Made by a program: the position numbers and the translations under genes
Sequence record: OL631481.1
Source: Escherichia phage ECML-183-2
Strand: one strand, 5' to 3'
Length of the DNA: 64,000 bases
Notes under the pieces: model-generated
What the model saw: the letters and a program-made list of their open reading frames with translations, nothing else
Told to the model about the DNA's origin: nothing
Database searches by the model: none
Shown: positions 9,537 to 25,566 of the stretch, in pieces
Layout of the letters: the number at the start of each line of letters is the position of its first letter
Position numbering within the stretch: position 1 is the stretch's first letter

Positions 9537-9563
9537 CTTATTCTCCTTTCGTTGTGTGAAACA

Positions 9564-12787: not shown

Positions 12788-13130
12788 GACAATCTCCTCT
12801 CATCGTTAGCCATCTTTCATGGCAATCATCAATCACCAACATCATACGATCAATCTTAAGGAATTACAATCGAATTATCATAGGGGATTCCTATCAATTA
12901 TCCCATATATACCGATTATTTTTGACACCCCATTCTTGTATAAAAAGTAACCCAAAATATCCACGGGGAGAGATTATTTCGACACACCCTGTTTCATGGC
13001 AATCATGGCAAGAATATCTAATAGAATCAATATCATATGGCAAAAATCATGGCGCATACGTAAGAAGTGCTTAACGCGAATTTTCGGGCCGTCAGGTCCA
13101 CGCAGCGACAATTCCCAAATATCATGCGAA

Positions 13131-13149
13131 TGAGAATAATTATCATTCG
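13131..13149. promoter_or_regulatory. Fur-box-like palindromic site
   Basis: GAGAATAATTATCATTCGT, 12 of 19 matches to GATAATGATAATCATTATC. Confidence 0.25.
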
Positions 13150-13310
13150 TATTCAATGACTTATGCAAGGCTCATGCCAACATAGCGACAAGGTGGGCCA
13201 CCTGATTATAAATCACACAAACACTTATTTATCAATGGTTTGGCAACTTCATCATATGACGGAACAATGTCAACTAATCCCGCTCATGACAGACGGACTA
13301 TTATTTATAT

Positions 13311-13329
13311 GAGAATGATTATTATTTAA
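13311..13329. promoter_or_regulatory. Fur-box-like palindromic site
   Basis: GAGAATGATTATTATTTAA. Confidence 0.25.
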
Positions 13330-14363
13330 ACGTTTATTAACATATAAACTAAAATAAATCAAGAATTTTCTGATTTTATTTACGTTTAAGAGAAGGTGCT
13401 CAACATCCTACCGGATCGCCGTTGGCAATCCTCGGATATTTACGCCCCCATGATTAAGGTTTATCTCTTTTATAGCTCAACATTCCCGCCTGTGGCGGTA
13501 ACATTTCGCCCCCAAAATTATTGACTTTTATTCTATTATGTGCATAGTGTGCAATGTATCGGAATGATGATAATCATCCTCCCATTGCCCCCATAATTAT
13601 TGCCATGCTAATTGTTTCATTACGTAATTATTACAATGACTATTGTTATTGCGCTAATGTTATGATCTTGGTAATTACATATAATGCTAATAATAAGCCA
13701 GCGCAATAAGTGTAAGCGTCATTACGCTTGCAATTATTGCAAGCTACGCAGTAACAAGAAATAACCATCACCGATGGTTATGATTGTTGGGGTGTAGTTG
13801 GCTTATTATTAGCTCGCTATGTGTCCGGCATAGCGTGCTAATGATGACTCTGTGAATGATTCGTTTTGTAATGATTTCATTCAGGCACTATTTTGCTAAT
13901 AGTTATTATTTTAATGGTTTCGTTTGTTATTGTTCGTTAGTTGGTTGTTTTGTCGTGTTATCGTTATTTTGCTTAGTATTTATCATGGTTTGATTGTTTG
14001 TCGTTATCAATCATCTTGCTATTATTCCTTTGATTATGATTAGTTTGCTTATTGTTTTATGTTGTTTGTTGGTTAGTTGTTGCGAACTATTATCAACATT
14101 ATAATTATGCGCTTATATTGCATAGATAATCATGGGTAGATGATAATGGTTATCATTGCACTAGAAAGGAGGTAAAAGGGTGTTTTTGATGGTTTGTTGT
14201 TGGTTGTTGATCGATTTTAACCGCTCTAAATAGCTCTCTAACAGCCTGTTGCCCTGGGATGTATGGTTATTCGTTTAATGGTCGATTAGCTCGATACCGT
14301 GATTTATTCAGTTTTGTTCTGTGTCGGTTTTTCATAGGCGAAAGCTATCAACATTGTTCGGGC

Positions 14364-14390
14364 AAAAAGAAAGGGCGCTTTGTGCGCCCT
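14364..14390 (-). terminator. rho-independent terminator closing the minus-strand array
   Basis: hairpin AGGGCGC-tttgt-GCGCCCT followed on the minus strand by TTTCTTTTT. Confidence 0.55.
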
Positions 14391-14405
14391 GGTATGAAAT
14401 GTTAT

Positions 14406-14788
14406 TTACTGATAAGCTGGATCGTTTGTTATATCAATCCAATGAGATAAATTAATTTTATTTTTTGCTTTCATTTTCTCGATCAAACGTTCGGCTAATG
14501 TCTCGGAACGAATATAAACGTTTTCGCTAAAATCTTGCCCCGTTTCTTCGTCGATCATCTCACGATATTCGATTTTTCCGATAAACGCGTGATTCAGCGC
14601 ATAAGTTTTACCCGTGTACCAGTTATGCAAATGGATCTCACATTTATAATCATCGCTATACCCTTCGGTTGTTCTAACTTCAACCAGGTCGCCTTTAAAC
14701 ACTGATAAGCACCACATAGGATCACGGTCTACAGCGCCGTTAAAGTCTTTACCGTTTACAGTCGCTGCCAGGTTGATGATATTGCTCA
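14406..14788 (-). CDS. hypothetical protein (127 aa)
   Basis: start set at ATG downstream of promoter 14822-14864; GAGG RBS. Confidence 0.5.
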
Positions 14789-14821
14789 TGGTGATTCCTC
14801 GTTTACCGTTTAAAATGATTT

Positions 14822-14864
14822 GCCCTACGTGATAAATAATAATGCAAGCGTGATCCGGTGTCAA
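14822..14864 (-). promoter_or_regulatory. early promoter cassette (variant without GC hairpin)
   Basis: minus strand TTGACA-N17-TATTAT then conserved ttatcACGTAGGGC leader. Confidence 0.55.
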
Positions 14865-15038
14865 TAGGTAAAATTGTAAAGATTTGATAGTTTGTTCCTT
14901 TGATGTTTTGTTGTTTGATAGGCGTTAGTTATCAATATATAGCGGGGTCTTCCGGTGATTATCTTCCCCTGCTCCCAGGTGCCGCCCGTTCAATAAGTAT
15001 AACAAAAAATAGGACTATTGCAAGCCCTATTTATTATC

Positions 15039-15173
15039 TTAAAACCAGGTGCCAACCGTTTCCAATAGGTCACTGACTACAAGGACAACACTGATCAGCA
15101 CATGTTCAACCATGAAAGGGATAAGCGCCAGCGTTGCTACTACGATCCCCATTGTGATGATTACCTTTCTCAT
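15039..15173 (-). CDS. small hydrophobic peptide (44 aa)
   Basis: ATGA start/stop overlap with upstream gene; hand-translated, two hydrophobic segments. Confidence 0.3.
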   Translation of the reverse strand: MRKVIITMGIVVATLALIPFMVEHVLISVVLVVSDLLETVGTWF

Positions 15174-15460
15174 TGTTGGCGGTTTACGTAAGCTTTACCG
15201 TTTACGGTCATCGGTATGGCCTCAAGGTCTGGATCTTCCTTAAGGTCGCGTGCAAGCTCACCGCAGCGGATACCCTCGAATCCGTAGTACTCTGTTGTGC
15301 CGTCCTGGAAAGTTTTAGCGGCAAGGCATAGGCGATAATTAACGCCGATCCGGTTTATTGCGTTGATATCGGTTAGCGTGATGGATTCTGGCAACTCATT
15401 AGCCAGTACAGGCGCGTTAATACCAACAACCAGGGCAACTACTGCGATCATCTTTTTCAT
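15170..15460 (-). CDS. secreted protein with signal peptide (96 aa)
   Basis: MKKMIAVVALVVGINAPVLA N-terminus. Confidence 0.5.
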   Translation of the reverse strand: MKKMIAVVALVVGINAPVLANELPESITLTDINAINRIGVNYRLCLAAKTFQDGTTEYYGFEGIRCGELARDLKEDPDLEAIPMTVNGKAYVNRQQ

Positions 15461-15514
15461 GCGTCTATCCTCTTCCTATTGCGTTTAATGGGGCGTTACC
15501 GCCCCGCTTATGGT

Positions 15515-15751
15515 TTATTGATTGATGTTATGATGAAAGTTATTTTCTTCAATAGCTTTTAAAATAAAAGCCGTGATCGCTTTCGTGTCTACTTGTTCGA
15601 ACGTATCAGAATAAGCCCAATAATAATCATCCCCTACTTTCGGCGGGTAAACCTGGACAAGGAGATCGCCACCTGGTTGATCTATAAGCTCAACATGTAA
15701 GCCGGATGATTCAGCGGTTTTAACGGCGTTTAATACTGTTGCAATACTCAT
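15515..15751 (-). CDS. hypothetical protein (78 aa)
   Basis: AAAGGAAAAG RBS; preceded by GC hairpin. Confidence 0.5.
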   Translation of the reverse strand: MSIATVLNAVKTAESSGLHVELIDQPGGDLLVQVYPPKVGDDYYWAYSDTFEQVDTKAITAFILKAIEENNFHHNINQ

Positions 15752-15795
15752 AATCTTTTCCTTTCTGATGTGGGGCGTTGCCGCCCCTTTGTTGA

Positions 15796-16095
15796 TTAGA
15801 TCGCTGTTTCCAGTAGTTCGGCTAACGTCTTACCGCCTGATAGTTGGTCTAACGTTTGCTCTTCTGGCAAGAAATTAGCTGATATTAATCCGACTTGATT
15901 TCCTTTGTGCCAATTAGCTTGACGGATGATTCCATCCTTTAAAGATTTTACCGCCATTGTGCAACCGTCGCCAAATGATTCATTTTTATGATCCATTACT
16001 TCATAAGCGCCCAGCTTGCTGCTGTTAGGCACCATTAACGCGAATACATCACCAACAACCAGCTTTTCTACGGTAACAATAGCGATAGTTTCCAT
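15796..16095 (-). CDS. hypothetical protein (99 aa)
   Basis: first gene downstream of cassette 16115-16170. Confidence 0.5.
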   Translation of the reverse strand: METIAIVTVEKLVVGDVFALMVPNSSKLGAYEVMDHKNESFGDGCTMAVKSLKDGIIRQANWHKGNQVGLISANFLPEEQTLDQLSGGKTLAELLETAI

Positions 16096-16114
16096 TTTAC
16101 TTTCCTCATTATCG

Positions 16115-16170
16115 GCGGCACCATTGCCGCCCTACGCATTAAATATAAGTTATCTAAGAGATTAGATCAA
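16115..16170 (-). promoter_or_regulatory. promoter plus leader-hairpin cassette
   Basis: minus strand TTGATC-N16-TTATAT, leader GCGTAGGG and hairpin GCGGCAATGGTGCCGC. Confidence 0.55.
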
Positions 16171-16173
16171 GGA

Positions 16174-16365
16174 TTATTTTGTAAAGATTACAGCTTCATC
16201 AAAATTTTCAACATAGTAAGCAAGCTCTTCATTTGCTGCAACCATTCCTAAAAGTTGGCTATAAGATAAACCTTTGATCCCTTCCTCGTTGTTTAATGCT
16301 TCGATGATTTCATCAACGGGCGCAAAAAACATGTTATTCGATTCCAGGTAGGAGATGGTTTTCAT
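16174..16365 (-). CDS. hypothetical protein (63 aa)
   Basis: downstream of cassette 16387-16442. Confidence 0.5.
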   Translation of the reverse strand: MKTISYLESNNMFFAPVDEIIEALNNEEGIKGLSYSQLLGMVAANEELAYYVENFDEAVIFTK

Positions 16366-16386
16366 AATGTTTACCTTTTTCGGGGA

Positions 16387-16442
16387 GCGGCACCATTGCC
16401 GCCCTACGTGGTAAATATTAGCACACTGGCGATCTGTGTCAA
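16387..16442 (-). promoter_or_regulatory. promoter plus leader-hairpin cassette
   Basis: TTGACA-N16-TAATAT, ttaccACGTAGGG, hairpin GCGGCAATGGTGCCGC. Confidence 0.6.
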
Positions 16443-16448
16443 TACTTT

Positions 16449-16835
16449 TTATTCAATATAAATCAAATTATCTTCACCAATGTAAGCCGACACGTTCGGC
16501 ATAAACTTAGCTGCATTGGTTAGGCGGTTCGCCGTGTTAGTGGTGTATATTTCAGGGCGATCCCAAAAGCCTACGCCGTGACCGTTACGGGTAAAATGTA
16601 AATCATTCCCGATCTGGTTGGCTGTTGCGCCGTCGCTCATTGCCTCAGAGATAGCGGCAAGATTAGCATTAATAAAGGCTGTTACATCCTGGGCGATCCG
16701 TTGATGGGCTTGATCTGAAAAATCATAATCAGTCATGTCATCTATAAAATTACCTTCATGATCCCTTGCGGATTCAGCAAAAATAAAGGCTTCTTTATAA
16801 CCGTTGATGATTTCAATAATGATTTCTGTTTTCAT
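16449..16835 (-). CDS. hypothetical protein (128 aa)
   Basis: ATGA-coupled to upstream ORF. Confidence 0.5.
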   Translation of the reverse strand: MKTEIIIEIINGYKEAFIFAESARDHEGNFIDDMTDYDFSDQAHQRIAQDVTAFINANLAAISEAMSDGATANQIGNDLHFTRNGHGVGFWDRPEIYTTNTANRLTNAAKFMPNVSAYIGEDNLIYIE

Positions 16836-17056
16836 GCTGTACGCTCGACAATAATAATAGTTTGCGGGATCTCGTTTTCTACTACTAACAAGGCTTTTTT
16901 CTGTGTGATAGATATTTTAACACGTTGTAAAGTAGCGGTGAAATCTTTCATTTCATTATGCGCGGACTTCGTGCAATGCCAGATCTCAGGCTTACCAACT
17001 TGTAAGCCGCGTAAAAATTCCGTTTTGCCTGTTTTGTTCGTGATCATTTGTTTCAC
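16832..17056 (-). CDS. hypothetical protein (74 aa)
   Basis: AAGGTGA RBS. Confidence 0.5.
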   Translation of the reverse strand: MKQMITNKTGKTEFLRGLQVGKPEIWHCTKSAHNEMKDFTATLQRVKISITQKKALLVVENEIPQTIIIVERTA

Positions 17057-17057
17057 C

Positions 17058-17162
17058 TTAACCGATACCGTGGGAAGATAGGATCATGTTAGCCATAGTT
17101 GCAACCACTCCAACCGATAACGCCAGGCCCACTATTACAACCGTGAAAATTTTCTCTAACAT
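17058..17162 (-). CDS. small hydrophobic peptide (34 aa)
   Basis: track ORF trimmed to ATG downstream of the cassette; GAGGG RBS. Confidence 0.35.
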   Translation of the reverse strand: MLEKIFTVVIVGLALSVGVVATMANMILSSHGIG

Positions 17163-17180
17163 GATTCTACCCTCATTAAT

Positions 17181-17242
17181 GGGCGTTGCACCATTGCCCC
17201 GCCCTACGTAATACACTTTACCAGATAACAAATTATTGTCAA
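17181..17242 (-). promoter_or_regulatory. promoter plus leader-hairpin cassette
   Basis: TTGACA-N16-TAAAGT, ACGTAGGG, GC hairpin. Confidence 0.55.
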
Positions 17243-17306
17243 GGTTTATTTTACTTCCCAAACGGAAAATTCACTGCGTGGCGGGAAGTATTCCCCGCCT
17301 TATTAA

Positions 17307-17477
17307 TTACTCTTCATCGTCGCCGTTATAGTATTCAATGCCGTTTTCATCGGTTACGGTGATGTTAACGCCACCGATAGCAACACGATCACGGGCAAAC
17401 GTCATAGCTTCATTTAAATCTTCAGACCAAAAAATATTGTGACCTTTGCGCGATACATAAAACATAGTCGGGATCAT
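17307..17477 (-). CDS. hypothetical protein (56 aa)
   Basis: track ORF trimmed to ATG (MIPTMF) downstream of hairpin. Confidence 0.45.
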   Translation of the reverse strand: MIPTMFYVSRKGHNIFWSEDLNEAMTFARDRVAIGGVNITVTDENGIEYYNGDDEE

Positions 17478-17499
17478 GATTTGTTTCTCTTCTGTTGTG

Positions 17500-17561
17500 A
17501 GCGGTGGACCATTCCGCCGCCCTATGTGGTAAACTTTACTACGTTGTTTGCCTGTTGTCAA
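17500..17561 (-). promoter_or_regulatory. promoter plus leader-hairpin cassette
   Basis: TTGACA-N17-TAAAGT, ttaccACATAGGG, hairpin GGCGGCGGAATGGTCCACCGC. Confidence 0.6.
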
Positions 17562-17562
17562 A

Positions 17563-17847
17563 TTATTTTTTAATGTTTTGCCCTACAAAATTGATCACTT
17601 CCTTAAGCTGTCTCTCTGTCATGATCGTACCTGGTAACTCTTCTTTAATTTCTTCCGGTAAATAGATATTACCGCGCCAGGTTAACAAACAACCGTTTTG
17701 ATCTTCGCAGATAGAATAAGAAAACATCCACTCGCAATCATTTTCAAGCTCCCAAAAACACAAAAAGTCTTCTTTCCCTAAGTTTTCAACGGTTAAACAT
17801 AATCCGCGACGTGCTGCATAATTAGTCAGGCTTTTTGTGATTTTCAT
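17563..17847 (-). CDS. hypothetical Cys-rich protein (94 aa)
   Basis: track ORF trimmed to ATG (MKITKS) downstream of hairpin. Confidence 0.5.
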   Translation of the reverse strand: MKITKSLTNYAARRGLCLTVENLGKEDFLCFWELENDCEWMFSYSICEDQNGCLLTWRGNIYLPEEIKEELPGTIMTERQLKEVINFVGQNIKK

Positions 17848-17869
17848 GATTTTTCTCTCTTCTTGTGAG

Positions 17870-17924
17870 CGGCACCATTGCCGCCCTACAAGATACATAT
17901 TATCAGACTAGGCGGACTTGTCAA
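17870..17924 (-). promoter_or_regulatory. promoter plus leader-hairpin cassette
   Basis: TTGACA-N16-TAATAT, hairpin GCGGCAATGGTGCCGC. Confidence 0.6.
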
Positions 17925-17925
17925 A

Positions 17926-18036
17926 CTATTTTTTCTTTTTCTTTGCTTCCAACCGTCTAAGGTTACGGCTTGACTTATTTCGCAAGGCGCTTAGATCGTC
18001 GTACCCTTTCCATGCTTGCATATCTTTCGGATTCAT
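17926..18036 (-). CDS. small basic protein (36 aa)
   Basis: hand-translated MNPKDMQAWKGYDD...; AAGGGG RBS. Confidence 0.3.
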   Translation of the reverse strand: MNPKDMQAWKGYDDLSALRNKSSRNLRRLEAKKKKK

Positions 18037-18045
18037 GTTATCCCC

Positions 18046-18207
18046 TTACTTGTTAGCCGGATCATATACCAGGACCGCGCCGCTTGCTTTCACGCTTTCC
18101 GCTTCATAGTTGCGCAGATCGTTTTCTGTAAGGTTGAGCGCGATCACTTCCTCGATCTCAACGTCAGCGGCAAGGGCGATCTCTTTGATAATGTCTGTTG
18201 TTTTCAT
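18046..18207 (-). CDS. small protein (53 aa)
   Basis: hand-translated MKTTDIIKEIALAADVE...; AAGGTG RBS. Confidence 0.35.
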   Translation of the reverse strand: MKTTDIIKEIALAADVEIEEVIALNLTENDLRNYEAESVKASGAVLVYDPANK

Positions 18208-18217
18208 AGTACGCACC

Positions 18218-18337
18218 TTATAAGATGATTGATAAGATAGTGATAACGAAAGCGATTATACTGATGGCAAATGTCATCTTTTTACCTTCGGATACTGCCG
18301 GATTTTCTACCGTGTATTCTACTGTGTACTTGCTCAT
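18218..18337 (-). CDS. small membrane-anchored peptide (39 aa)
   Basis: hand-translated; GAGAGG RBS; C-terminal hydrophobic helix. Confidence 0.3.
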   Translation of the reverse strand: MSKYTVEYTVENPAVSEGKKMTFAISIIAFVITILSIIL

Positions 18338-18360
18338 CGTGTAATCCTCTCGTTTGCTTT

Positions 18361-18418
18361 GGGAACTATTCCCGCCGCCTTATGAATTAAATATACACTA
18401 TCTCAAAATGATTGCAAG
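18361..18418 (-). promoter_or_regulatory. promoter plus leader-hairpin cassette
   Basis: TTGCAA-N16-TATATT, hairpin GGCGGCGGGAATAGTTCCC. Confidence 0.5.
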
Positions 18419-18434
18419 CCTTTTTCTAAATTAT

Positions 18435-18719
18435 TTATGCAGTAAACAAACCATCATTTACAACGGCGGCGATGATCTCCCGTGCCATTGATTCAGGGAA
18501 AGGGGCGCTATAGTCCTGGCTTGTCTCATCGGTATCAGTGATCCAATGATAAGCTAACGAGTAAAAGCCTTTACTAACTGTTTTCAGTGAGATGATGATC
18601 ACTCGGTCAAGCTTATTGGTGAATGTTGCCGTTAATGTGTTACCCTCCTGCGTCATGTTGGACAAGTAAGCGGGATCATTAATCAGGGAAAACATTAGCA
18701 CGGTGTTAGCTTTACTCAT
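18435..18719 (-). CDS. hypothetical protein (94 aa)
   Basis: track ORF trimmed to ATG (MSKANTV) downstream of hairpin. Confidence 0.5.
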   Translation of the reverse strand: MSKANTVLMFSLINDPAYLSNMTQEGNTLTATFTNKLDRVIIISLKTVSKGFYSLAYHWITDTDETSQDYSAPFPESMAREIIAAVVNDGLFTA

Positions 18720-18737
18720 GATTGCATCCTCAAAGGG

Positions 18738-18794
18738 GCGCGGCACCATTGCCGCCCTACACGATAACTATAACACAATGTAAAACAGGATCAA
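18738..18794 (-). promoter_or_regulatory. promoter plus leader-hairpin cassette
   Basis: TTGATC-N16-TATAGT, hairpin GCGGCAATGGTGCCGC. Confidence 0.55.
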
Positions 18795-18997
18795 CCTTTA
18801 TTTTTCCACGGTGTCAGCTTGTTAATCATTGGTGATAAATAGCGTTTACCAACGTAAAACAGTACGCCAACTGATGCAACGGCGGCGATCTCATGTAAGG
18901 AGGAAGGTCGCGCGGTGTCATAATAGGTACCAATAATAGCAATAGCGGCTACTGCGGCAATGTCTGTAATAATTTTTTCTTGTTTTGCGGTGATCAT
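18791..18997 (-). CDS. small membrane protein (68 aa)
   Basis: track ORF trimmed to ATG (MITAKQ); two hydrophobic segments. Confidence 0.45.
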   Translation of the reverse strand: MITAKQEKIITDIAAVAAIAIIGTYYDTARPSSLHEIAAVASVGVLFYVGKRYLSPMINKLTPWKNKG

Positions 18998-19019
18998 AAT
19001 ATTTACCTTTTTGTATGGT

Positions 19020-19078
19020 GGGGGAACTATTCCCCGCCTGATGTAATACAGTTTAACAGGTCCGGTTATGGTGTCAAC
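19020..19078 (-). promoter_or_regulatory. promoter plus leader-hairpin cassette
   Basis: TTGACA-N16-TAAACT, hairpin GGCGGGGAATAGTTCCCC. Confidence 0.55.
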
Positions 19079-19083
19079 CACTT

Positions 19084-19269
19084 TTAAAGATATTTTATAT
19101 TGATAACGTTTTCAGGTTTAACCTTGTTGTGATGTGCATCAACATAGATCAAACCATCGTCAGAAAAGCCCAGGATCACGCCCTGCGCAATAAAACCGTA
19201 TTCGTCACGGTAACGCACGGCTATTTTTAACGTTGCGTTGTAGGCTGTTTTAAGCTCGTTTAAAGTCAT
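19084..19269 (-). CDS. hypothetical protein (61 aa)
   Basis: AGAGGA RBS. Confidence 0.45.
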   Translation of the reverse strand: MTLNELKTAYNATLKIAVRYRDEYGFIAQGVILGFSDDGLIYVDAHHNKVKPENVINIKYL

Positions 19270-19290
19270 TTTTGTTTATCCTCTACATGT

Positions 19291-19318
19291 AAAAAGAAAG
19301 GGCGCTTGGTGCGCCCTT
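19291..19318 (-). terminator. intra-array terminator or attenuator hairpin
   Basis: hairpin AAGGGCGC-accaa-GCGCCCTT followed by TTTCTTTTT on the minus strand. Confidence 0.4.
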
Positions 19319-19324
19319 GTTATG

Positions 19325-19471
19325 TTAATCCTCTAAATCCATCCAATTATATTTGTCACTCTTCCCGCGCTTTGTTTTATTACGCTTGTCGCCTTTTCGG
19401 ATCACTTCCTCGTTCCAGGCCTTGCGGATCTTGGAAGATTGAATTTTTTCTGCGCGATTAGATGTATTCAT
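19325..19471 (-). CDS. small basic protein (48 aa)
   Basis: hand-translated MNTSNRAEKIQSSKIRK...; AAGAGGA RBS. Confidence 0.35.
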   Translation of the reverse strand: MNTSNRAEKIQSSKIRKAWNEEVIRKGDKRNKTKRGKSDKYNWMDLED

Positions 19472-19491
19472 TTTGTTTCCTCTTTATATGA

Positions 19492-19544
19492 GCGGCACCA
19501 TTGCCGCTATATTATTAATTTAAACTGTTTTGTAAAATTGTCAA
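19492..19544 (-). promoter_or_regulatory. promoter plus leader-hairpin cassette
   Basis: TTGACA-N16-TAAATT, hairpin GCGGCAATGGTGCCGC. Confidence 0.5.
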
Positions 19545-19550
19545 GGTTTA

Positions 19551-19904
19551 TCATTGATAAGAGCAAGCAAGGATCACGCCTGCAATATAAAGCCAATAAT
19601 TTTCCCTTTCTCGTTGGATTTTATCATCGCTGCTATTCTCTTTAATGTATCCCCAGGATGTTAACAGGCGATCAATTTCCCAATATTCGAAAGCGATATT
19701 GATATCTGATGGCAAGCCTTGTAACCATGATGCAAGTGCTTTAACAATACTATAATTAAAACGTGATTGGTTATCAGGGTACCAGTACTCGGAATTAAAA
19801 CGGTGCATCAATTCCGCGATCTTCTCTTTTTCGGTTGTAATACCGTAATCATTAAAATCGATAGCGGCAAGGATGTACTCTTTAATTGCATTTTGTGCTT
19901 TCAT
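19551..19904 (-). CDS. hypothetical protein (117 aa)
   Basis: AAGAGAGAAAG RBS. Confidence 0.5.
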   Translation of the reverse strand: MKAQNAIKEYILAAIDFNDYGITTEKEKIAELMHRFNSEYWYPDNQSRFNYSIVKALASWLQGLPSDINIAFEYWEIDRLLTSWGYIKENSSDDKIQRERENYWLYIAGVILACSYQ

Positions 19905-19922
19905 GGTCTTTCTCTCTTTTTG

Positions 19923-19979
19923 AGCGGGAACTATTCCCGCCCTACGTGTAACAGTTTACTAAAAATTAAATCCGTGTCA
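19923..19979 (-). promoter_or_regulatory. promoter plus leader-hairpin cassette
   Basis: TTGACA-N16-TAAACT, ACGTAGGG, hairpin GCGGGAATAGTTCCCGC. Confidence 0.6.
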
Positions 19980-19983
19980 AGCT

Positions 19984-20205
19984 TTATTTTGTTACTACCA
20001 TTTGGTACCCTGTTTCAATGTTAGTAAATACTGTTATCCCGTCCTGGCGTTCACTCATTAGCATACAAGGCGCTAACATCCTTTCTACTGCCTTGCACTC
20101 ATTGTAAACGGCGGTTATGTCTCCTGCGGCCTTGTCTTCTGTGGTGAATGTATCGTTTACGTAAACCTGACCAGCGACAACGGCGACAATAGCGAAAGTG
20201 ATCAT
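19984..20205 (-). CDS. hypothetical protein (73 aa)
   Basis: starts MITFA; AAGGAA RBS. Confidence 0.45.
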   Translation of the reverse strand: MITFAIVAVVAGQVYVNDTFTTEDKAAGDITAVYNECKAVERMLAPCMLMSERQDGITVFTNIETGYQMVVTK

Positions 20206-20240
20206 GATGTTTCCTTGTTAGTAGTGGTTTCTCTTCTCTA

Positions 20241-20276
20241 TAGCGCCCATTGTAAGGCGCTATAACGAAAAGTCAA
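20241..20276 (-). promoter_or_regulatory. variant promoter with -10 inside a hairpin
   Basis: TTGACT-N16-TACAAT; hairpin TATAGCGCC....GGCGCTATA. Confidence 0.4.
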
Positions 20277-20279
20277 CGA

Positions 20280-20447
20280 TTATTTTTTAAGGCTTAAAGT
20301 ACCTAACTTGTCAGCATGACGCAGACCAGGGAAGATCCATTTGCCTGATTCATCTTTCACCGGGGCTTTAAGCGTAGCGCCCAGGTTGGCGGCGTTAACT
20401 TTACGTGCAACGTTGCGAGCGGCTTCACGGGTAGCGAAAGTGATCAT
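20280..20447 (-). CDS. small protein (55 aa)
   Basis: hand-translated MITFATREAARNVARK...; AGAGGA RBS. Confidence 0.35.
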   Translation of the reverse strand: MITFATREAARNVARKVNAANLGATLKAPVKDESGKWIFPGLRHADKLGTLSLKK

Positions 20448-20471
20448 GATATTTTCCTCTTCTCTTTGTTA

Positions 20472-20533
20472 GGCGGTGGACCATTCCGCCGCCTTGATGT
20501 AATACAGTTTACTTTATTTTTGCAGTATTGCAA
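20472..20533 (-). promoter_or_regulatory. promoter plus leader-hairpin cassette
   Basis: TTGCAA-N16-TAAACT, hairpin GGCGGCGGAATGGTCCACCGCC. Confidence 0.5.
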
Positions 20534-20539
20534 GCGGTT

Positions 20540-20752
20540 TTATGAAATAATCGTCAAAGTAAAATTGTAATCACCTGATTGATACAATACTTTATCACCG
20601 AACGTTCCAACACGTTTAACATTGCAATATATACCCATAACACTTTTTACATCTTTGATATTCTTCACGCCTGTAATATCTTTATTAAAATGATCGTGAT
20701 CAGAAAATAAAACTTGTTTTGCATTTTTCAACAAGGTGCGGATATTAGCCAT
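20540..20752 (-). CDS. hypothetical protein (70 aa)
   Basis: downstream of cassette. Confidence 0.5.
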   Translation of the reverse strand: MANIRTLLKNAKQVLFSDHDHFNKDITGVKNIKDVKSVMGIYCNVKRVGTFGDKVLYQSGDYNFTLTIIS

Positions 20753-20775
20753 CGTGATAATCTCTCTTCTGTTGT

Positions 20776-20833
20776 GAGCGGCACTATTGCCGCCCTACGT
20801 AATACAGTTTACTCTTTTTCTTTCCCGTGTCAA
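20776..20833 (-). promoter_or_regulatory. promoter plus leader-hairpin cassette
   Basis: TTGACA-N16-TAAACT, ACGTAGGG, hairpin GCGGCAATAGTGCCGC. Confidence 0.6.
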
Positions 20834-20842
20834 CAATCTTTT

Positions 20843-21070
20843 TCAGATTAATTCATCCAGGCATAACAGGCGATCAACGTTGAGATCGGTTAGGCTGATG
20901 GTTGGCACCTGGTAGGATTCGATGTACTCGACGCTCGCATATTCTCCAAAATTAGCAATAGCCCACTTATTCAAGATCTCACATACATCATTAATCTTTT
21001 TGTTTGTTACAACTGCTACAACCTGGGAACTGCCAACGGTGCCGGATACACGAACAATATTGATAGCCAT
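20843..21070 (-). CDS. hypothetical protein (75 aa)
   Basis: downstream of cassette. Confidence 0.5.
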   Translation of the reverse strand: MAINIVRVSGTVGSSQVVAVVTNKKINDVCEILNKWAIANFGEYASVEYIESYQVPTISLTDLNVDRLLCLDELI

Positions 21071-21092
21071 AATCTTTAATCTCTCTGTTGTT

Positions 21093-21152
21093 GGCGGGAA
21101 ACCATTTCCCGCCCTATGTGATACATCTTACACTAATTTTAAACGTTGTCAA
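21093..21152 (-). promoter_or_regulatory. promoter plus leader-hairpin cassette
   Basis: TTGACA-N16-TAAGAT, gtatcACATAGGG, hairpin GGCGGGAAATGGTTTCCCGCC. Confidence 0.6.
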
Positions 21153-21162
21153 CTGTTTTTTA

Positions 21163-21402
21163 TTACATTCCAACCATCGCGGCACGGATCGCAGTAGTGC
21201 TATATTTGAAACCGTCTGGAGTTTTATCTTGTCCAGTTTGTTCCAGAAAAAGCATCATATCCCGCGCCGCATCATTACGATTAGCATTAGCGTTAATAAA
21301 ATCCAAGGCCAACCGATACAATGATTCATCGTTATTAATCCAAAGGCTTACATTCCAATGAGTTTTGTTTTTGTGACCGTTGTACATTTTAGATTTAGCC
21401 AT
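21163..21402 (-). CDS. hypothetical protein (79 aa)
   Basis: downstream of cassette. Confidence 0.5.
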   Translation of the reverse strand: MAKSKMYNGHKNKTHWNVSLWINNDESLYRLALDFINANANRNDAARDMMLFLEQTGQDKTPDGFKYSTTAIRAAMVGM

Positions 21403-21426
21403 GATTTTTCTCTCTTTTTCAGTGAG

Positions 21427-21485
21427 GCGGGAAGTGTTCCCGCTCTCTATGTAATACAGTTTACTCTTTTTATTCGTGCTGTCAA
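21427..21485 (-). promoter_or_regulatory. promoter plus leader-hairpin cassette
   Basis: TTGACA-N16-TAAACT, hairpin GCGGGAACACTTCCCGC. Confidence 0.55.
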
Positions 21486-21491
21486 TGCTTT

Positions 21492-21857
21492 TTATAAATC
21501 TTTTTTACGTTTTACATCGCTTGCATGACTGTATACAGTGATCCCATTGTCACGGCAAAAACGGGAAAGATACGCGCCGCGTGAAAATTCCTTGCCCTCA
21601 AGGTTGATAACCTTGCTAAATTCTTCCAGGGCGACGGTATCAAAATGATCACCATAGCCATATTGAAACGGAACGTTAACCACCTCGATCAGTTTACCGC
21701 CGATCTCAACGTCAACCAGTAAAGAAAAATATGTGTTACCGTAGGACTGTTGAAACCAGCGACGGGCACTAATATGCACCGCCTCAATGCTGGATAATTC
21801 AATTTTAGCCGTGTTAGCCAGGGTAGCATAAGCGGAAACATTGATATTAATAGCCAT
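21492..21857 (-). CDS. hypothetical protein (121 aa)
   Basis: downstream of cassette. Confidence 0.5.
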   Translation of the reverse strand: MAININVSAYATLANTAKIELSSIEAVHISARRWFQQSYGNTYFSLLVDVEIGGKLIEVVNVPFQYGYGDHFDTVALEEFSKVINLEGKEFSRGAYLSRFCRDNGITVYSHASDVKRKKDL

Positions 21858-21883
21858 GGTGTCACTCTCTCTTTTTGGTTAGT

Positions 21884-21935
21884 GGGAAGTATTCCCGATA
21901 AAAGTTATTATGCTTATACTATCACTCATTGTCAA
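21884..21935 (-). promoter_or_regulatory. promoter plus leader-hairpin cassette
   Basis: TTGACA-N17-CATAAT, hairpin GGGAATACTTCCC. Confidence 0.5.
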
Positions 21936-21954
21936 TAGTATAAGACTAAAACTT

Positions 21955-22134
21955 TTAACGATAATCATTATAGGCTTTATTGACCTGGCGAATGTAACAT
22001 TCGAAAGCAAGATCAATGTATTCGTATTCACGCACATAATCACCATAGGTCACTACATACATTTTTAAAGTTTCCTCATAAGCCAGGAGGATCGAATCTA
22101 AACCTATAATCTCAGTTTTTGCAATGATAGCCAT
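21955..22134 (-). CDS. small protein (59 aa)
   Basis: hand-translated MAIIAKTEIIGLDS...; below the 60-aa cutoff of the supplied track. Confidence 0.4.
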   Translation of the reverse strand: MAIIAKTEIIGLDSILLAYEETLKMYVVTYGDYVREYEYIDLAFECYIRQVNKAYNDYR

Positions 22135-22155
22135 GATGTTAACCTTTTATTGTTG

Positions 22156-22211
22156 GCGGCACCATTGCCGCCCTACGTGATAAACTATACCAGAAGTTTA
22201 AACAGTGTCAA
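22156..22211 (-). promoter_or_regulatory. promoter plus leader-hairpin cassette
   Basis: TTGACA-N16-TATAGT, ttatcACGTAGGG, hairpin GCGGCAATGGTGCCGC. Confidence 0.6.
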
Positions 22212-22217
22212 CCGTTT

Positions 22218-22580
22218 TTATTCGTAAATTTTACCGCTTTCGGCCCATACCATAACGCGGCGCATACTATCCCAAGTGTTTTGATCCAGGTTTAAGCCGT
22301 GCAACTCTTCGGTACTTCCCAGACCAGGTACCGCTTTGTTGTAAGTCGCATATAAGCGCCCTTGATACTCATACGCCAGAGTAAGATCCGTTTGAATCAT
22401 CTTTTTAAGCATAGCATTAAGCATCATATTAGCGGCATGTTGATCACGTTTTAGCGGTAACATGTCAATAAGGGCGCGATAAGCTGAAACATGAATATCA
22501 ACCGTTTCACGTGGTAAATTTTTCATATCATCGCGGAAGGACACCAGGTTTAACATGATAGTATTGATTTGCTTGCTCAT
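22218..22580 (-). CDS. hypothetical protein (120 aa)
   Basis: downstream of cassette. Confidence 0.5.
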   Translation of the reverse strand: MSKQINTIMLNLVSFRDDMKNLPRETVDIHVSAYRALIDMLPLKRDQHAANMMLNAMLKKMIQTDLTLAYEYQGRLYATYNKAVPGLGSTEELHGLNLDQNTWDSMRRVMVWAESGKIYE

Positions 22581-22601
22581 TGTGTTACCCTTTTTTGTTT
22601 T

Positions 22602-22662
22602 GGCGGGGAAGTATTCCGCCGCCCTATGTGATACATCTTATCAGATTAAAAAACGTTGTCAA
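22602..22662 (-). promoter_or_regulatory. promoter plus leader-hairpin cassette
   Basis: TTGACA-N16-TAAGAT, gtatcACATAGGG, hairpin GGCGGCGGAATACTTCCCCGCC. Confidence 0.6.
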
Positions 22663-22670
22663 GAATATTT

Positions 22671-22766
22671 TTAGAAAATAATAGCCGCTACTACAATCCA
22701 AAATGGAACGGCTAGAATGATAGCGTTAATCGTTCCAACCGTCAAGCTATTTTCTTTATTAATCAT
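22671..22766 (-). CDS. micro membrane peptide (31 aa) with its own cassette
   Basis: hand-translated MINKENSLTVGTINAIILAVPFWIVVAAIIF; AAGAGG RBS. Confidence 0.25.
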   Translation of the reverse strand: MINKENSLTVGTINAIILAVPFWIVVAAIIF

Positions 22767-22795
22767 TGTAAGCCTCTTGCATAATTTCACTATGA

Positions 22796-22852
22796 GCGGC
22801 ACCATTGCCGCCCTACGTGGTAAATATTATGCCAGTGGCGGCGATATGTCAA
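22796..22852 (-). promoter_or_regulatory. promoter plus leader-hairpin cassette
   Basis: TTGACA-N17-TAATAT, ttaccACGTAGGG, hairpin GCGGCAATGGTGCCGC. Confidence 0.6.
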
Positions 22853-23406
22853 AGACTATTTTCAAAGTTTTCTAGTGCGATCCTTTTTTCTTCCTCTGTC
22901 GGCTGATAATCAGGAAAAGCATCAACACACAACAACGGCGGGATCTCTTCGTACTCTTCCTCTTCCGTTGTCTCCTCGTCTTCCTCCTGGGCTATGGCTG
23001 CAATTTTGGCTAATTTTCTTTCAGCTTGAATCAATTTACCATCAAGTACGTTTTTTGCCATGTTGTAAGCGGTCCAGGTGATGCGCTTACTTTCCAGTGC
23101 TTGATCAAGCGCCGCTATCTTGCTGGGGTATTCATCCAGGACACGAAAAGCCGGATCAACTTTGTACAAAGGATTATCTTTCGCGCCGTCGCTCGCATCT
23201 TCCGCACTGGATAAATCAGCGTTACCATTTGCCAGCCAGCCAGGGCGCACATAACGCGCTTTTACGTTGCCGTTACTACGTGCTAATCTGTTACCTATTT
23301 GCTCACCACTATATCCCGTGGATTCATCGATAAGATGATCGGGAATGATGCGCGGATCATCTGCTTCATGTTTTACCCAAGACTGGATCACATATTCGCG
23401 GCCCAT
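22849..23406 (-). CDS. hypothetical protein with acidic C-terminal tail (185 aa)
   Basis: start moved to ATG (MGREY) after GGTGG RBS. Confidence 0.5.
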   Translation of the reverse strand: MGREYVIQSWVKHEADDPRIIPDHLIDESTGYSGEQIGNRLARSNGNVKARYVRPGWLANGNADLSSAEDASDGAKDNPLYKVDPAFRVLDEYPSKIAALDQALESKRITWTAYNMAKNVLDGKLIQAERKLAKIAAIAQEEDEETTEEEEYEEIPPLLCVDAFPDYQPTEEEKRIALENFENSL

Positions 23407-23407
23407 A

Positions 23408-23665
23408 TTAACCACCTTTTTTCAACAATTGGCATACTTTAAAAAGACTTGCTGAATCCTTGCAAGGGTAGAAAGATGTACGATAATCACGTACGCCAAC
23501 CTTGCGGATCTCGATGTTCTCGCATGTTGTTTGATCAAAGATATTTATTTCATCACGCCCCCTTATATAAACATAGTGGGGATGTATTAACGCATATTTT
23601 GCTAATCTGTAAAAAGCGTTATCTTTGAACGCGATCACGTGACCTTTTAATTTGATGTAAAACAT
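23408..23665 (-). CDS. hypothetical protein (85 aa)
   Basis: GGTGG RBS; downstream of cassette. Confidence 0.5.
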   Translation of the reverse strand: MFYIKLKGHVIAFKDNAFYRLAKYALIHPHYVYIRGRDEINIFDQTTCENIEIRKVGVRDYRTSFYPCKDSASLFKVCQLLKKGG

Positions 23666-23683
23666 TCTACCACCTTACAAATA

Positions 23684-23738
23684 GCGGGAACTATTCCCGC
23701 TTTATGTAACATATTAACAAATTATTCGTTAATGTCAA
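23684..23738 (-). promoter_or_regulatory. promoter plus leader-hairpin cassette
   Basis: TTGACA-N16-TAATAT, hairpin GCGGGAATAGTTCCCGC. Confidence 0.55.
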
Positions 23739-23741
23739 ACC

Positions 23742-24014
23742 TTAAAGCAAAAACGCTACATCTTGCGCTTTTAGTGTAGTATCAACCATTTTCGGGCTTT
23801 TATAATCAACAAAGCGCGCGGTTTTTTCAATAGCGAAACCGAGATAATCTTGTTTATTGAATTTACATTCTTTCTTAAATGTTTCCCGCGCCACGGTGAT
23901 CGCTGCGTCCAGGGATAAACGCCCGTCAATGTTGATATTTGCGAAAGATCCGCCACCGCTCATAGGTTTACCAGTGGTGCCAGCTACGATCATTGTTGCG
24001 CTATATGATGCCAT
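23742..24014 (-). CDS. hypothetical protein (90 aa)
   Basis: track ORF trimmed to ATG (MASYSA) downstream of hairpin. Confidence 0.5.
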   Translation of the reverse strand: MASYSATMIVAGTTGKPMSGGGSFANINIDGRLSLDAAITVARETFKKECKFNKQDYLGFAIEKTARFVDYKSPKMVDTTLKAQDVAFLL

Positions 24015-24038
24015 GATTATAATCTCTCTTCTGTTGTG

Positions 24039-24100
24039 AGCGGCTGGACCATTCCGCCGCCCTATGTGATACATCTTATCAGGTTGTTGTTTGTTGTCAA
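24039..24100 (-). promoter_or_regulatory. promoter plus leader-hairpin cassette
   Basis: TTGACA-N16-TAAGAT, gtatcACATAGGG, hairpin GGCGGCGGAATGGTCCAGCCGC. Confidence 0.6.
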
Positions 24101-24106
24101 TACTTT

Positions 24107-24304
24107 TTATTCTATTCCTGCAATTTGATTAACGCGCTTGCATTTTGTAGCGTGCTGGTCTTCTGTAATGACTCCCATTTCTAACAGGGAATCAATGAAA
24201 GATAAAACCGTTTCATGATCATCCTGGGGATGACTGAACTCAGTAAAACCGTTTACCACGACGCTGATTTGTCCTGCTTTCGCTACTATGTGCAATGTTG
24301 CCAT
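24107..24304 (-). CDS. hypothetical protein (65 aa)
   Basis: track ORF trimmed to ATG (MATLHIV) downstream of hairpin. Confidence 0.5.
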   Translation of the reverse strand: MATLHIVAKAGQISVVVNGFTEFSHPQDDHETVLSFIDSLLEMGVITEDQHATKCKRVNQIAGIE

Positions 24305-24325
24305 GATTTTAACTCCAAATAATGA

Positions 24326-24382
24326 GCGGCACCATTGCCGCCCTACGTGGTAAATATTATGCCGCCACCTGGCGAACGTCAA
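24326..24382 (-). promoter_or_regulatory. promoter plus leader-hairpin cassette (first of array)
   Basis: TTGACG-N17-TAATAT, ttaccACGTAGGG, hairpin GCGGCAATGGTGCCGC. Confidence 0.55.
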
Positions 24383-24491
24383 TCACTTTTTCAATCTTTT
24401 TTATTTTCTTTTTGCTTGCTATATATAAAAGAAAGGGCTATCATCTTTCTACCGCGCCAACCAGGGCGCACATCAAAGAAAGGGCGATACC

Positions 24492-24758
24492 ATGACAAAT
24501 ACTACATTACACCTTATGCACTCATTGGGCTGGCAAGGCGGCACGGTGCACCAGGTAGCAAGCGCAACGGGCTTAAAGGTTGAAACAGTTCTCAACCTGG
24601 GCGATCATAAGGTGGAAGAAATAGATCATTTTGATACGTTCGCAAATGGTTATCTATGGGCTTGCAGTGGCGGCGGGGAAAGCAAGATACCACCAGGGGC
24701 GCGGGGCGATATGTATTTTTGGTTAGGTGTCCTATCCTGGCAAGAAAACAAAAAATAA
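24492..24758 (+). CDS. hypothetical protein (88 aa), possible small DNA-binding regulator
   Basis: only plus-strand ORF at the head of the array; AAGGG RBS; candidate extended -10 (TGcTATATA) upstream. Confidence 0.4.
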   Translation: MTNTTLHLMHSLGWQGGTVHQVASATGLKVETVLNLGDHKVEEIDHFDTFANGYLWACSGGGESKIPPGARGDMYFWLGVLSWQENKK

Positions 24759-24760
24759 TC

Positions 24761-24789
24761 TTGACAAGCCCAGGGATCGGGCTTATACT
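24761..24789 (+). promoter_or_regulatory. sigma70-like promoter with no CDS downstream
   Basis: TTGACA-N17-TATACT on the plus strand. Confidence 0.5.
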
Positions 24790-24795
24790 GTTTTA

Positions 24796-24900
24796 CATAC
24801 AGAAGAGGAAGCGCCACCCCACGGCGTAAAGGCGGGGCTAACATACCAGGGGGGGCACTGGTTGGAAGGTTGATCGCCGGTAGGCTGGGCGCTATATATT
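24796..24900 (+). ncRNA. candidate small structured RNA (GC-rich island)
   Basis: begins after promoter 24761-24789; GC-rich with paired GCGCC / GGCGC ends, followed by TATATATTT; no ORF with RBS. Confidence 0.3.
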
Positions 24901-25023
24901 TGTAAAGAAATGTAAAGATAAAATAATCGCTTGCTTTCCTGGCTGGATCTGTTATTCTTATTACATGGCGAGGGGACACGGGAGCGCGAGACAAACACCG
25001 CCCCTGCGCGTCATTCTCTAAAT

Positions 25024-25042
25024 GAGAATGATTATCATTTAC
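25024..25042. promoter_or_regulatory. Fur-box-like palindromic site
   Basis: GAGAATGATTATCATTTAC, 15 of 19 matches to Fur consensus; flanked by inverted repeat TCATTCTC / GAGAATGA. Confidence 0.3.
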
Positions 25043-25081
25043 CTTATCAAATAAGAATCAATCTCATTTATAAACCTAAAT

Positions 25082-25100
25082 GCGAATCATTATCATTTGC
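25082..25100. promoter_or_regulatory. Fur-box-like palindromic site
   Basis: GCGAATCATTATCATTTGC. Confidence 0.25.
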
Positions 25101-25145
25101 ATTTCCATATGAGAACTCTTCTCATTCCCATCTGCATAAATTTTT

Positions 25146-25328
25146 GTAAACTTTAAATTTTGCTTTTGTACTTTCATTTTTGTAAAAGCAAAAAAACTTT
25201 AAATACTGTGGGCGCGCAAAATTTTTAAAATTTTCCTTGACTTTTGAGTTTTGTTTTGTATCTAACATTTTAAGATAATTTTCCTAAACTTTAAATTTTG
25301 GTTTTCAACTTTCACTTTTGTAAATTCT
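25146..25328. repeat. AT-rich direct repeats (two copies of about 43 bp plus shorter reiterations)
   Basis: aactttaaattttgcttttgtactttcatttttgtaaaa repeated as aactttaaattttggttttcaactttcacttttgtaaat; tttgagata reiterated at 25350-25390. Confidence 0.5.
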
Positions 25329-25566
25329 TAAAAAGTTTAAATAATTTGAGGGATTTTTGAGATAATAGGTAGTGGGAATTTGAGATAACCTTTAATCTTA
25401 TTAGTAGACCTTCAGGAACCCACTCAGATCGAATCCTAGTGATGCAAACTGAAAAAGACAAGGGTTTGTATAGGACAAAATAACAGGCTCTCTACGGTGC
25501 TGTAGGAGCCTTATTTCTGTGCTACAAAGTGACACCTTTGTTCTAAAAATGAAAAAAGTTAAAATA

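Follow-up and report, generated by a model that had tools for sequence, protein, structure and literature searches.

The Fur boxes of Escherichia coli, such as those of fecI, fhuA, fhuF, and entC, consist of a 19-bp sequence built around a 7-1-7 inverted repeat and occur in 6-bp-phased clusters. A Fur box is also known from temperate phage DNA, where it is found at the stx1 promoter, and in cosB of lambda, which comprises the IHF site I1 and the R sites, IHF serves as an architectural host factor. Previously, to our knowledge, Fur boxes of phages were known only where a single operator precedes a cargo gene in a temperate phage (stx1, sit). Here, we report conserved Fur-box arrays in the terminal repeat and at the non-coding borders of virulent coliphages from two subfamilies, starting from a 64,000-nt stretch of DNA of Escherichia phage ECML-183-2 (sequence record OL631481.1), which was analyzed at its full length and is referred to as the window.

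The sitABCD operon with its Fur box is carried by lambdoid prophages (PMC6969025). These temperate-phage sites share with the window that a site for host Fur is located on phage DNA, but they are single operators at the promoters of cargo genes, whereas the window contains arrays with no cargo gene behind them. Another described system is Repeat Region 3 of phage T5, which is located beside the injection stop signal and was called conserved and complicated, with an unexplained function, in a paper that does not contain the word Fur and that gives the first-step-transfer segment as 7.9% of the T5 genome (Davison, bioRxiv 10.1101/866236). A full-text search of incomplete coverage retrieved no literature linking Fur to the non-coding repeats of T5, rV5-like, or phAPEC8-like phages. 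The window is 95 to 99% identical to the last of these groups (Phapecoctavirus, Stephanstirmvirinae, genome about 150 kb).

Fur boxes of the window

Small genes on the minus strand occupy 0.5 to 31.5 kb of the window and are followed by plus-strand genes. The boxes and the segments that contain or border them are:

12788-14405, non-coding region 1 (NC1), interrupting the minus-strand small genes
13072-13400, direct terminal repeat of 329 bp (physical ends, by homology), which holds boxes A and B
13126-13150, Fur box A, a pair of 19-mers offset by 6 bp (17.4 and 17.0 bits)
13305-13329, Fur box B (18.1 bits), core TGAGAAT-G-ATTATTA at 13310-13324
14136-14160, Fur box C, 6-bp phased (13.1 and 17.7 bits), core TGATAAT-G-GTTATCA at 14141-14155
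14406-24382, minus strand, early block with about 20 called open reading frames (ORFs) of at least 80 amino acids, bordered by Fur boxes
21954-21972, isolated Fur-like box (17.4 bits) between genes of the early block, in a short spacer
about 24760-25566, non-coding region 2 (NC2), the second gap among the minus-strand small genes
25018-25125, four-box Fur array in NC2 with centers at 25030, 25059, 25088, and 25117, an exact 29-bp period
25018-25042, array box D1 (22.2 bits)
25047-25071, array box D2 (13.0 bits)
25076-25100, array box D3 (17.3 bits)
25109-25125, array box D4 (degenerate)

The general form of the boxes is an extended 7-1-7 inverted repeat, AAA-TGA(G/T)AAT-N-ATT(C/A)TCA-TTT. A first-pass annotation of the window, made from the sequence alone, had listed four copies of a 16-mer as Fur-like palindromes. 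All four are present, at positions slightly different from those given there: GAGAATAATTATCATT at 13132-13147, GAGAATGATTATTATT at 13311-13326, GAGAATGATTATCATT at 25024-25039, and GCGAATCATTATCATT at 25082-25097. With up to three mismatches allowed, the 16-mer has 15 matches compared to 1.48 expected, and none of 100 shuffled sequences reached 15. The consensus used for comparison was the 19-mer GATAATGATAATCATTATC with the 7-1-7 unit TGATAATnATTATCA. The best copy, credited before with 15 of the 19 consensus positions, agrees at 16 of them on the better strand, and its core, TGAGAAT-G-ATTATCA, agrees with 13 of the 14 specified positions of the 7-1-7 unit. The additional perfect palindrome noted at 25110-25127 with a CTCT spacer is also there, in the form of D4, ATGAGAA-CTC-TTCTCAT, with a 3-nt spacer and at 25109-25125. 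Three sites had been missed, those at 14136-14160 (17.7 bits), 25047-25071 (13.0 bits), and 21954-21972 (17.4 bits).

Scanning the whole genome with a Fur matrix had been proposed as a check. The matrix used was symmetric, 19 bp long, and built from 24 sites in 13 operators of E. coli K-12, 12 of them footprinted plus fhuA, with the footprinted regions taken from the list in Chen et al. 2007 (PMC2189734). Eight positions in the window scored at least 16 bits (starts at 13126, 13132, 13311, 14142, 21954, 25018, 25024 with 22.2 bits, and 25082), whereas 200 shuffles in 1-kb blocks that kept the local dinucleotide content contained 0.7 such positions on average and four at most. All eight are intergenic and none of this strength was found in coding DNA, as the claim that the palindromes are confined to non-coding DNA would have it; the box at 21954-21972 is nevertheless located outside the two large regions to which they had been assigned. 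Genuine operators left out of the matrix scored 10.8 to 21.6 bits with a median of 16.3, compared to 16 to 22 bits for the phage boxes, and the scores of the phage boxes held when three GAGAA-containing operators were dropped from the training set. In the sister phage Schickermooser, the 86.6 kb of the genome outside the window contained no site of at least 16 bits and three of at least 14 bits, which is about chance level.

Footprinted Fur clusters consist of overlapping sites 6 (or 3) bp apart (Chen et al. 2007, PMC2189734). The phage pairs at 13126/13132, 14136/14142, 25018/25024, 25047/25053, and 25076/25082 have this 6-bp phasing and agree in their spacing with Fur clusters.

The GAGAAT variant found in the phage boxes is identical in the E. 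coli operators of fecI, TGAGAATGGTTATCA, and fhuA, GAGAATGATTATTAT, and the 15-mer of box B, GAGAATGATTATTAT, is the same sequence as the latter. A search of one genome per species for the fully G-type palindrome (TGAGAAT-N-ATTCTCA) in the exact form AATGAGAATNATTCTCATT identified it in at least 120 bacterial species from many phyla. The neighboring ORFs considered were the 110 with at least 120 amino acids that start no more than 350 bp from this sequence and read away from it, and the Pfam matches listed for them comprised eight Plug domains of TonB receptors, eight iron-type solute-binding proteins, six ZnuA-type proteins, six members of the FUR family, five FeoB proteins, and two FTR1 proteins. 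This is the gene set of a Fur regulon, and it identifies the phage-type box as a genuine Fur operator motif. Since a known Fur site, the operator of fecI, departs more from the consensus than D1 does, binding of Fur should be expected in any case. On the evidence of the sequences, it is well supported that the palindromes are genuine Fur boxes under selection, and we infer that Fur binds to them.

The phage boxes thus share with the E. coli boxes the 19-bp or 7-1-7 repeat, the 6-bp-phased clusters, and the score range. They differ in that they overlap no promoter of an iron-related or any other protein gene, belong to a virulent phage whose terminal repeat and long non-coding regions contain them, and show a stronger preference for G at position 4 of the half-site. 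At this position, the phage boxes contain G in 53% and T in 40% of the cases, compared to 11% G and 49 to 71% T in the E. coli operators.

Conservation in related phages and occurrence in other viruses

The position of the physical ends was derived from Schickermooser, for which mapped ends are available. Positions 1 to 329 of its record are 100% identical to positions 150866 to 151194 and map to 13400-13072 of the window. The repeat has been published as 328 bp (Korf 2019, PMC6563267), and two other records begin at window position 13073. Box A, with its core TGAGAAT-A-ATTATCA at 13131-13145, lies within the repeat, 54 bp from its left boundary, and box B is 71 bp inside the right one. Box C comes after the terminator at 14372-14390 (minus strand), which closes the last early gene, at a distance of about 215 bp, and the array in NC2 is located at the inner border of the early block, about 12.0 kb from the end at 13072, or 7.9% of about 151 kb. 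Both boundaries of the repeat read GTGCT/YAAC, where the slash indicates the boundary, as GTGCT/TAAC at 13067-13075 and GTGCT/CAAC at 13396-13404, and this is a candidate for the cutting motif of the terminase. The left boundary is kept in the Justusliebigvirus muut as GTGCTTAAC; the GTGCT half lacks this conservation at the right boundary, which is TAGGCTCAAC in muut and CTTGCT/... in Schickermooser.

Where the window has boxes A, B, and C, muut has boxes of up to 23.9 bits. The flanks in NC1 are about 76% identical or cannot be aligned, yet the boxes are kept: the counterpart of box A is at the same place with 20.2 bits, that of box B is GATAATGATTATCATTTGC with 23.9 bits, and at the place of box C there are two boxes with 21.4 and 18.1 bits. 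NC2, as far as the first box, is conserved well outside the genus and is unannotated there. It was compared with Justusliebigvirus, an unclassified relative, Certrevirus CR9, the Seunavirus phages 4MG and SSE121, and Vequintavirus rV5, and every one of these relatives possesses boxes of 16 to 22 bits at this position. The conservation extends across Stephanstirmvirinae and Vequintavirinae. Some of the boxes are fully canonical, for instance GCAAATGATAATGATTATC in 4MG with 21.8 bits. In the close relatives Schickermooser and PsgM04F, some boxes of the array are weaker while their neighbors are stronger, a swap of box strength among the array positions that selection on an array would produce. 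The record of another Seunavirus, EC152, starts beside the NC2 equivalent and contains no end-to-end repeat.

A blastn search with NC2 matched T5-like phages exactly over the array (25019-25104 of the window). In total, 503 phage records match the array, and the matches in Demerecviridae fall under features annotated as terminal repeat. The long terminal repeats of T5-like phages contain arrays of five to nine boxes, located 300 to 460 bp inside the inner boundary of the repeat; in the T5-like phage poul124, the array is at 9506-9670 and the repeat ends at 9968. In poul124, a perfect LexA box and two DnaA boxes come first, followed by the Fur-box array and then by the DRD repeats. The LexA box, TACTGTATATTTATACAGTA, and the two DnaA boxes, TGTGGATAA, were seen at 9366-9480 of the poul124 record (L264) and at 2230-2350 of a second T5-like repeat (L002), with the consensus sites of three host DNA-binding proteins side by side.

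Repeat Region 3 of T5 (DRC repeats, palE to palJ) agrees with the window in the sequence of the boxes, in the location of the arrays in untranslated DNA about 8% of the genome length from an end, and in that the arrays adjoin a block of early genes whose transcription runs toward that end. It differs in that the 10-kb repeat of T5 contains this whole block, while the repeat of ECML-183-2 has only 329 bp, and in the DnaA boxes, the LexA box, and the DRD repeats that accompany the array in T5. No match to DnaA boxes was present in NC1 or NC2, there was no LexA box in the non-coding regions of the window, and the repeats at 25139-25348 are unrelated to the DRD repeats. Neither do the two share proteins that could be found: a tblastx comparison of a 12.4-kb T5-like terminal repeat with the window matched the box arrays and no protein, and a shared phage protein as reader of the boxes was rejected on this result. 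Homologues of T5 A1 or A2 were not found by tblastx in the window, to which this search was confined.

An exact 17-mer search of IMG/VR yielded at least 120 contigs, 21 of which carry arrays, and 15 of these 21 are unrelated at the DNA level to the reference loci. Nine viral loci that were read by eye range from 21 to 49% GC. In five unrelated contigs (L051, L058, L065, L044, and L095), the arrays are located 0.3 to 2 kb upstream of terminase genes, which is the usual place of cos or pac sites. The stretches that contain an array together with the genes of the small and large terminase subunits are:

L051, 980-4060
L058, 153-2560
L065, 1973-3978
L095, 11418-12320

A viral contig of 41 kb (L037), assembled as a circle, contains at its junction (40-100) eight GAGAAT hexamers running into a Fur box, a microsatellite with a hexamer unit. 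Boxes at both ends of this contig (L037/L082) had been considered as a candidate and were rejected, being only an assembly overlap of 113 bp.

Possible functions of the boxes

The same boxes in the terminal repeats of T5 relatives indicate that the phages possessing them probably recruit Fur, the iron regulator of their host. What the bound protein would do is speculative. Two predicted promoters next to the array need to be considered:

24761-24789, plus strand, promoter P1, TTGACA-17-TATACT, near-consensus in the promoter scan, with an element extending to 24893
24931-25010, plus strand, promoter P2 with its element, TTGCTT at 24931-24936, a 16-nt spacer, and TATTCT at 24953-24958

P2 is conserved and points into the array, which is located 50 to 150 nt downstream of it; the predicted start, a position inferred from the hexamers only, precedes D1 by about 52 nt. 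We hold with moderate confidence that the boxes are selected binding sites for host Fur that act as an iron-dependent block or insulator of transcription. Dimers of Fe2+-Fur would occupy the boxes cooperatively, by way of the sites overlapping with a 6-bp phase and the 29-bp period of the four-box array. Fur would then sit at three conserved places, in the terminal repeat, just past the terminator of the early block, and about 12 kb into the genome downstream of P2, and would form a roadblock that halts the transcripts from P1 and P2 as well as those that run on across the terminal repeat. At the borders of the early module, non-coding transcription would then track the iron status of the host.

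Several points weigh against this. None of the boxes overlaps the -35 or -10 site of the promoter of a protein-coding gene, the usual place of repression by Fur; the P2 start and its transcript are predictions only; and the preference for G at position 4 of the half-site means that the optimum of the boxes may not be that of E. coli Fur. This preference is partly a matter of ascertainment, since the phage sample was seeded with a G-containing 17-mer. Finally, the location of boxes A and B in the terminal repeat and of arrays beside terminase genes elsewhere suggests that the boxes act at the ends of the DNA and not in transcription. The first of these points also concerns the original proposal of operator-like sites for iron-responsive control of phage genes. 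The part of it that names Fur is borne out by the matrix, the phasing, the fecI and fhuA operators, the flanks of the bacterial copies, and the conservation. The operator part is not supported in the form proposed: a classical operator fits poorly with boxes that overlap no promoter of a protein gene, two of them in the terminal repeat, and with an array that has no conserved ORF behind it. Promoter scan and alignment revealed no strong promoter overlapping any box; the box at 21954-21972 is located just upstream of the -35 site of a minus-strand promoter at 21935-21907.

Among the rival readings, the strongest assigns the boxes to the genome ends or to staged DNA entry; it is tenable but on balance doubtful. 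The boxes would be assembly points of a nucleoprotein complex at the DNA ends and at the border of the first-entering segment, and this complex would serve packaging or end cutting, protection or pairing of the ends, or staged entry. Its protein could be Fur in the role of an architectural host factor, the terminase, or another protein. The short distances of A and B to the repeat boundaries fit this, as do the T5-like arrays near the inner repeat boundary, behind DnaA and LexA boxes in the injection-stop region, the location of the array at the same 7.9% of the genome as the first-step-transfer segment of T5, the terminase-adjoining arrays of unrelated contigs, and the many matching phage records with their Demerecviridae matches in terminal repeats. 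Similar to lambda cosB, repeated protein-binding sites adjoin a DNA end here, and the arrays of other viral contigs are just upstream of terminase genes. The motif is nevertheless a different one, the end itself holds only a minority of the boxes (0.7 to 12 kb separate it from box C, the box at 21954, and the four-box array), and the large terminase gene is distant, about 60 kb away in this phage group and at 59.7 to 61.7 kb in Schickermooser. In addition, the boundaries bear a motif of their own, GTGCT/YAAC, the non-coding regions of the window contain no DnaA or LexA boxes, the agreement at 7.9% may be a coincidence, and the ends of metagenome contigs are often assembly breaks at repeats.

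A host factor is favored as the reader of the boxes. That they are instead sites of a phage-encoded dimeric protein, which the first-pass annotation had offered as its second option, or of another host protein with Fur-like specificity, so that the resemblance would be of no consequence, is unlikely. For such a reader, TGAGAAT is systematically preferred over the enterobacterial TGATAAT, the AAA/TTT flanks are conserved, and most early proteins are without a known function. The motif, however, is common to unrelated phage lineages of 21 to 49% GC without a detectable common protein, the T5-like terminal repeat and the window included, and its exact G-variant marks Fur-regulon genes across bacteria. 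D1 is closer to the consensus than the operator of fecI, and relatives drift toward the canonical Fur sequence, with fully canonical boxes at the same position in some of them. No FUR-family protein was among the best 25 of the 42 Pfam families of the window ORFs. Quite improbable, too, is a decoy function, in which about ten high-affinity sites on each of hundreds of replicated genomes would titrate Fur and derepress host iron uptake to supply iron for the iron-dependent enzymes of the phage. Multicopy Fur boxes do derepress the Fur regulon in E. coli, which is the principle of the Fur titration assay. The boxes occupy non-coding DNA without a constant position relative to promoters, those in the terminal repeat are doubled in virion DNA, and the phage group encodes a class Ia NrdAB and an NrdD with its 4Fe-4S activase. 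Such a sink, on the other hand, needs no positional conservation, no phasing, and no place downstream of a conserved promoter, and T5 degrades the host DNA and shuts off host expression early, so that little would be gained there from derepressing host genes. A chance origin of the boxes is excluded for practical purposes, and it would be very surprising if they were products of AT-rich non-coding DNA or mere hairpins of weak terminators. The non-coding regions are AT-rich (30 to 36% GC), -10 hexamers resemble Fur boxes, and a terminator scan marked 25010-25032, but shuffles that kept the local composition gave 0.7 positions where eight were seen, and the positions of the boxes are kept across genera despite diverging flanks. 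The marked hairpin has three G-C pairs only, its upstream arm is kept no more than partly in other genera, and with its tail, TTATCATTT, it does not show the G+C-rich hairpin and U tract of an intrinsic terminator.

A further reading, tenable but on balance doubtful, is that Fur-box arrays are a widespread and so far unrecognized cis element of phages that marks the termini and the border of the first-entering or early DNA. If so, this class would take in the injection-stop palindromes of T5 and the terminase-adjoining arrays of unrelated phages, and virulent phages would employ the host iron sensor Fur, in a structural or checkpoint capacity, for the entry of DNA, the processing of its ends, or early transcription. 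The iron status of the host would also come to bear on infection by several phage groups that serve in therapy and typing. The interest of the boxes comes mainly from the link to T5 and from the ease of testing it: they form much of the injection-stop repeat region, and Fur, if it binds there, would be a concrete and testable candidate for a host factor. Should Fur not bind, a conserved motif of several phage lineages would still need a protein that reads it.

Elements around the boxes and other features of the window

Downstream of P1 comes a GC-rich element, about 95 nt long, which is 70 to 90% conserved in distant genera, including Vequintavirinae, where it is unannotated. Its consensus fold contains one compensatory pair, it has no match in Rfam, and it may be an undescribed small RNA of the phages. 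The GC-rich 5' element that follows P2 contains the invariant sequence GAGACAAnCACCG in an alignment of seven phages from five genera. Covariation in this element before the array is weak, with one compensatory pair, and no RNA structure is claimed for it for this reason. In rV5, a Fur box follows each of the two GC-rich elements. Just upstream of the -35 site of P2, GTAAAGAAATGTAAA at 24902-24916 is a direct repeat of the type GTAAA-N5-GTAAA, kept in five of six aligned relatives, all except rV5; its form is one that we take to fit the recognition site of CpxR. The conserved plus-strand promoters and GC-rich elements are overlapped by an ORF at 24650-24994 on the minus strand (phAPEC8 hypothetical protein 00257), which is split by a frameshift in Schickermooser, is unannotated in distant relatives, and is probably not a gene.

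Behind the array, there are two direct repeats of 72 nt at 25139-25210 and 25277-25348, 138 bp apart, 82% identical, and rich in TTGTAAA and CTTTAAA, which may be sites for a second factor. Motifs like these are also located between the Fur boxes of the unrelated viral contig L095 (11400-11700).

Enrichment in sigma-70-type promoters is seen in no part of the window other than the block from NC1 to NC2. The promoter scan found 76 promoter-like sites in 12.4 to 26.2 kb compared to 41.9 expected, and no enrichment in 1 to 12.8 kb and 25.5 to 45 kb. About 18 minus-strand matches with a perfect TTGACA hexamer at -35 are located in the early block, between 16.4 and 24.1 kb. In those early promoters of phAPEC8 that were inspected, a hairpin, GGGCGGCAATGGTGCCGCTC, comes after the promoter. 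The phAPEC8 record labels this hairpin as "PHIRE promoters," while it is more likely a stabilizing hairpin at the 5' end. The "PHIRE promoter" motif was also considered as the identity of the boxes and rejected, since this GC hairpin after early promoters is a different element.

The segment 13900-14260, flanked by the terminal repeat on one side and the end of the early block on the other, has a strong strand asymmetry, being rich in T and G on the plus strand and in A and C on the minus strand, and contains no conserved ORF. No tRNAs were found in the window, and Rfam gave no match in it at gathering thresholds, NC1 and NC2 yielding hits at chance level alone. The plus-strand genes at 31600-64000 encode, according to Pfam, NrdD and a 4Fe-4S activase, a set resembling the tellurite resistance proteins TerC, TerD, TerF, and TelA, UvrD-like and DnaB-like helicases, and a resolvase, and the class Ia NrdAB is encoded in the sister genome of Schickermooser.

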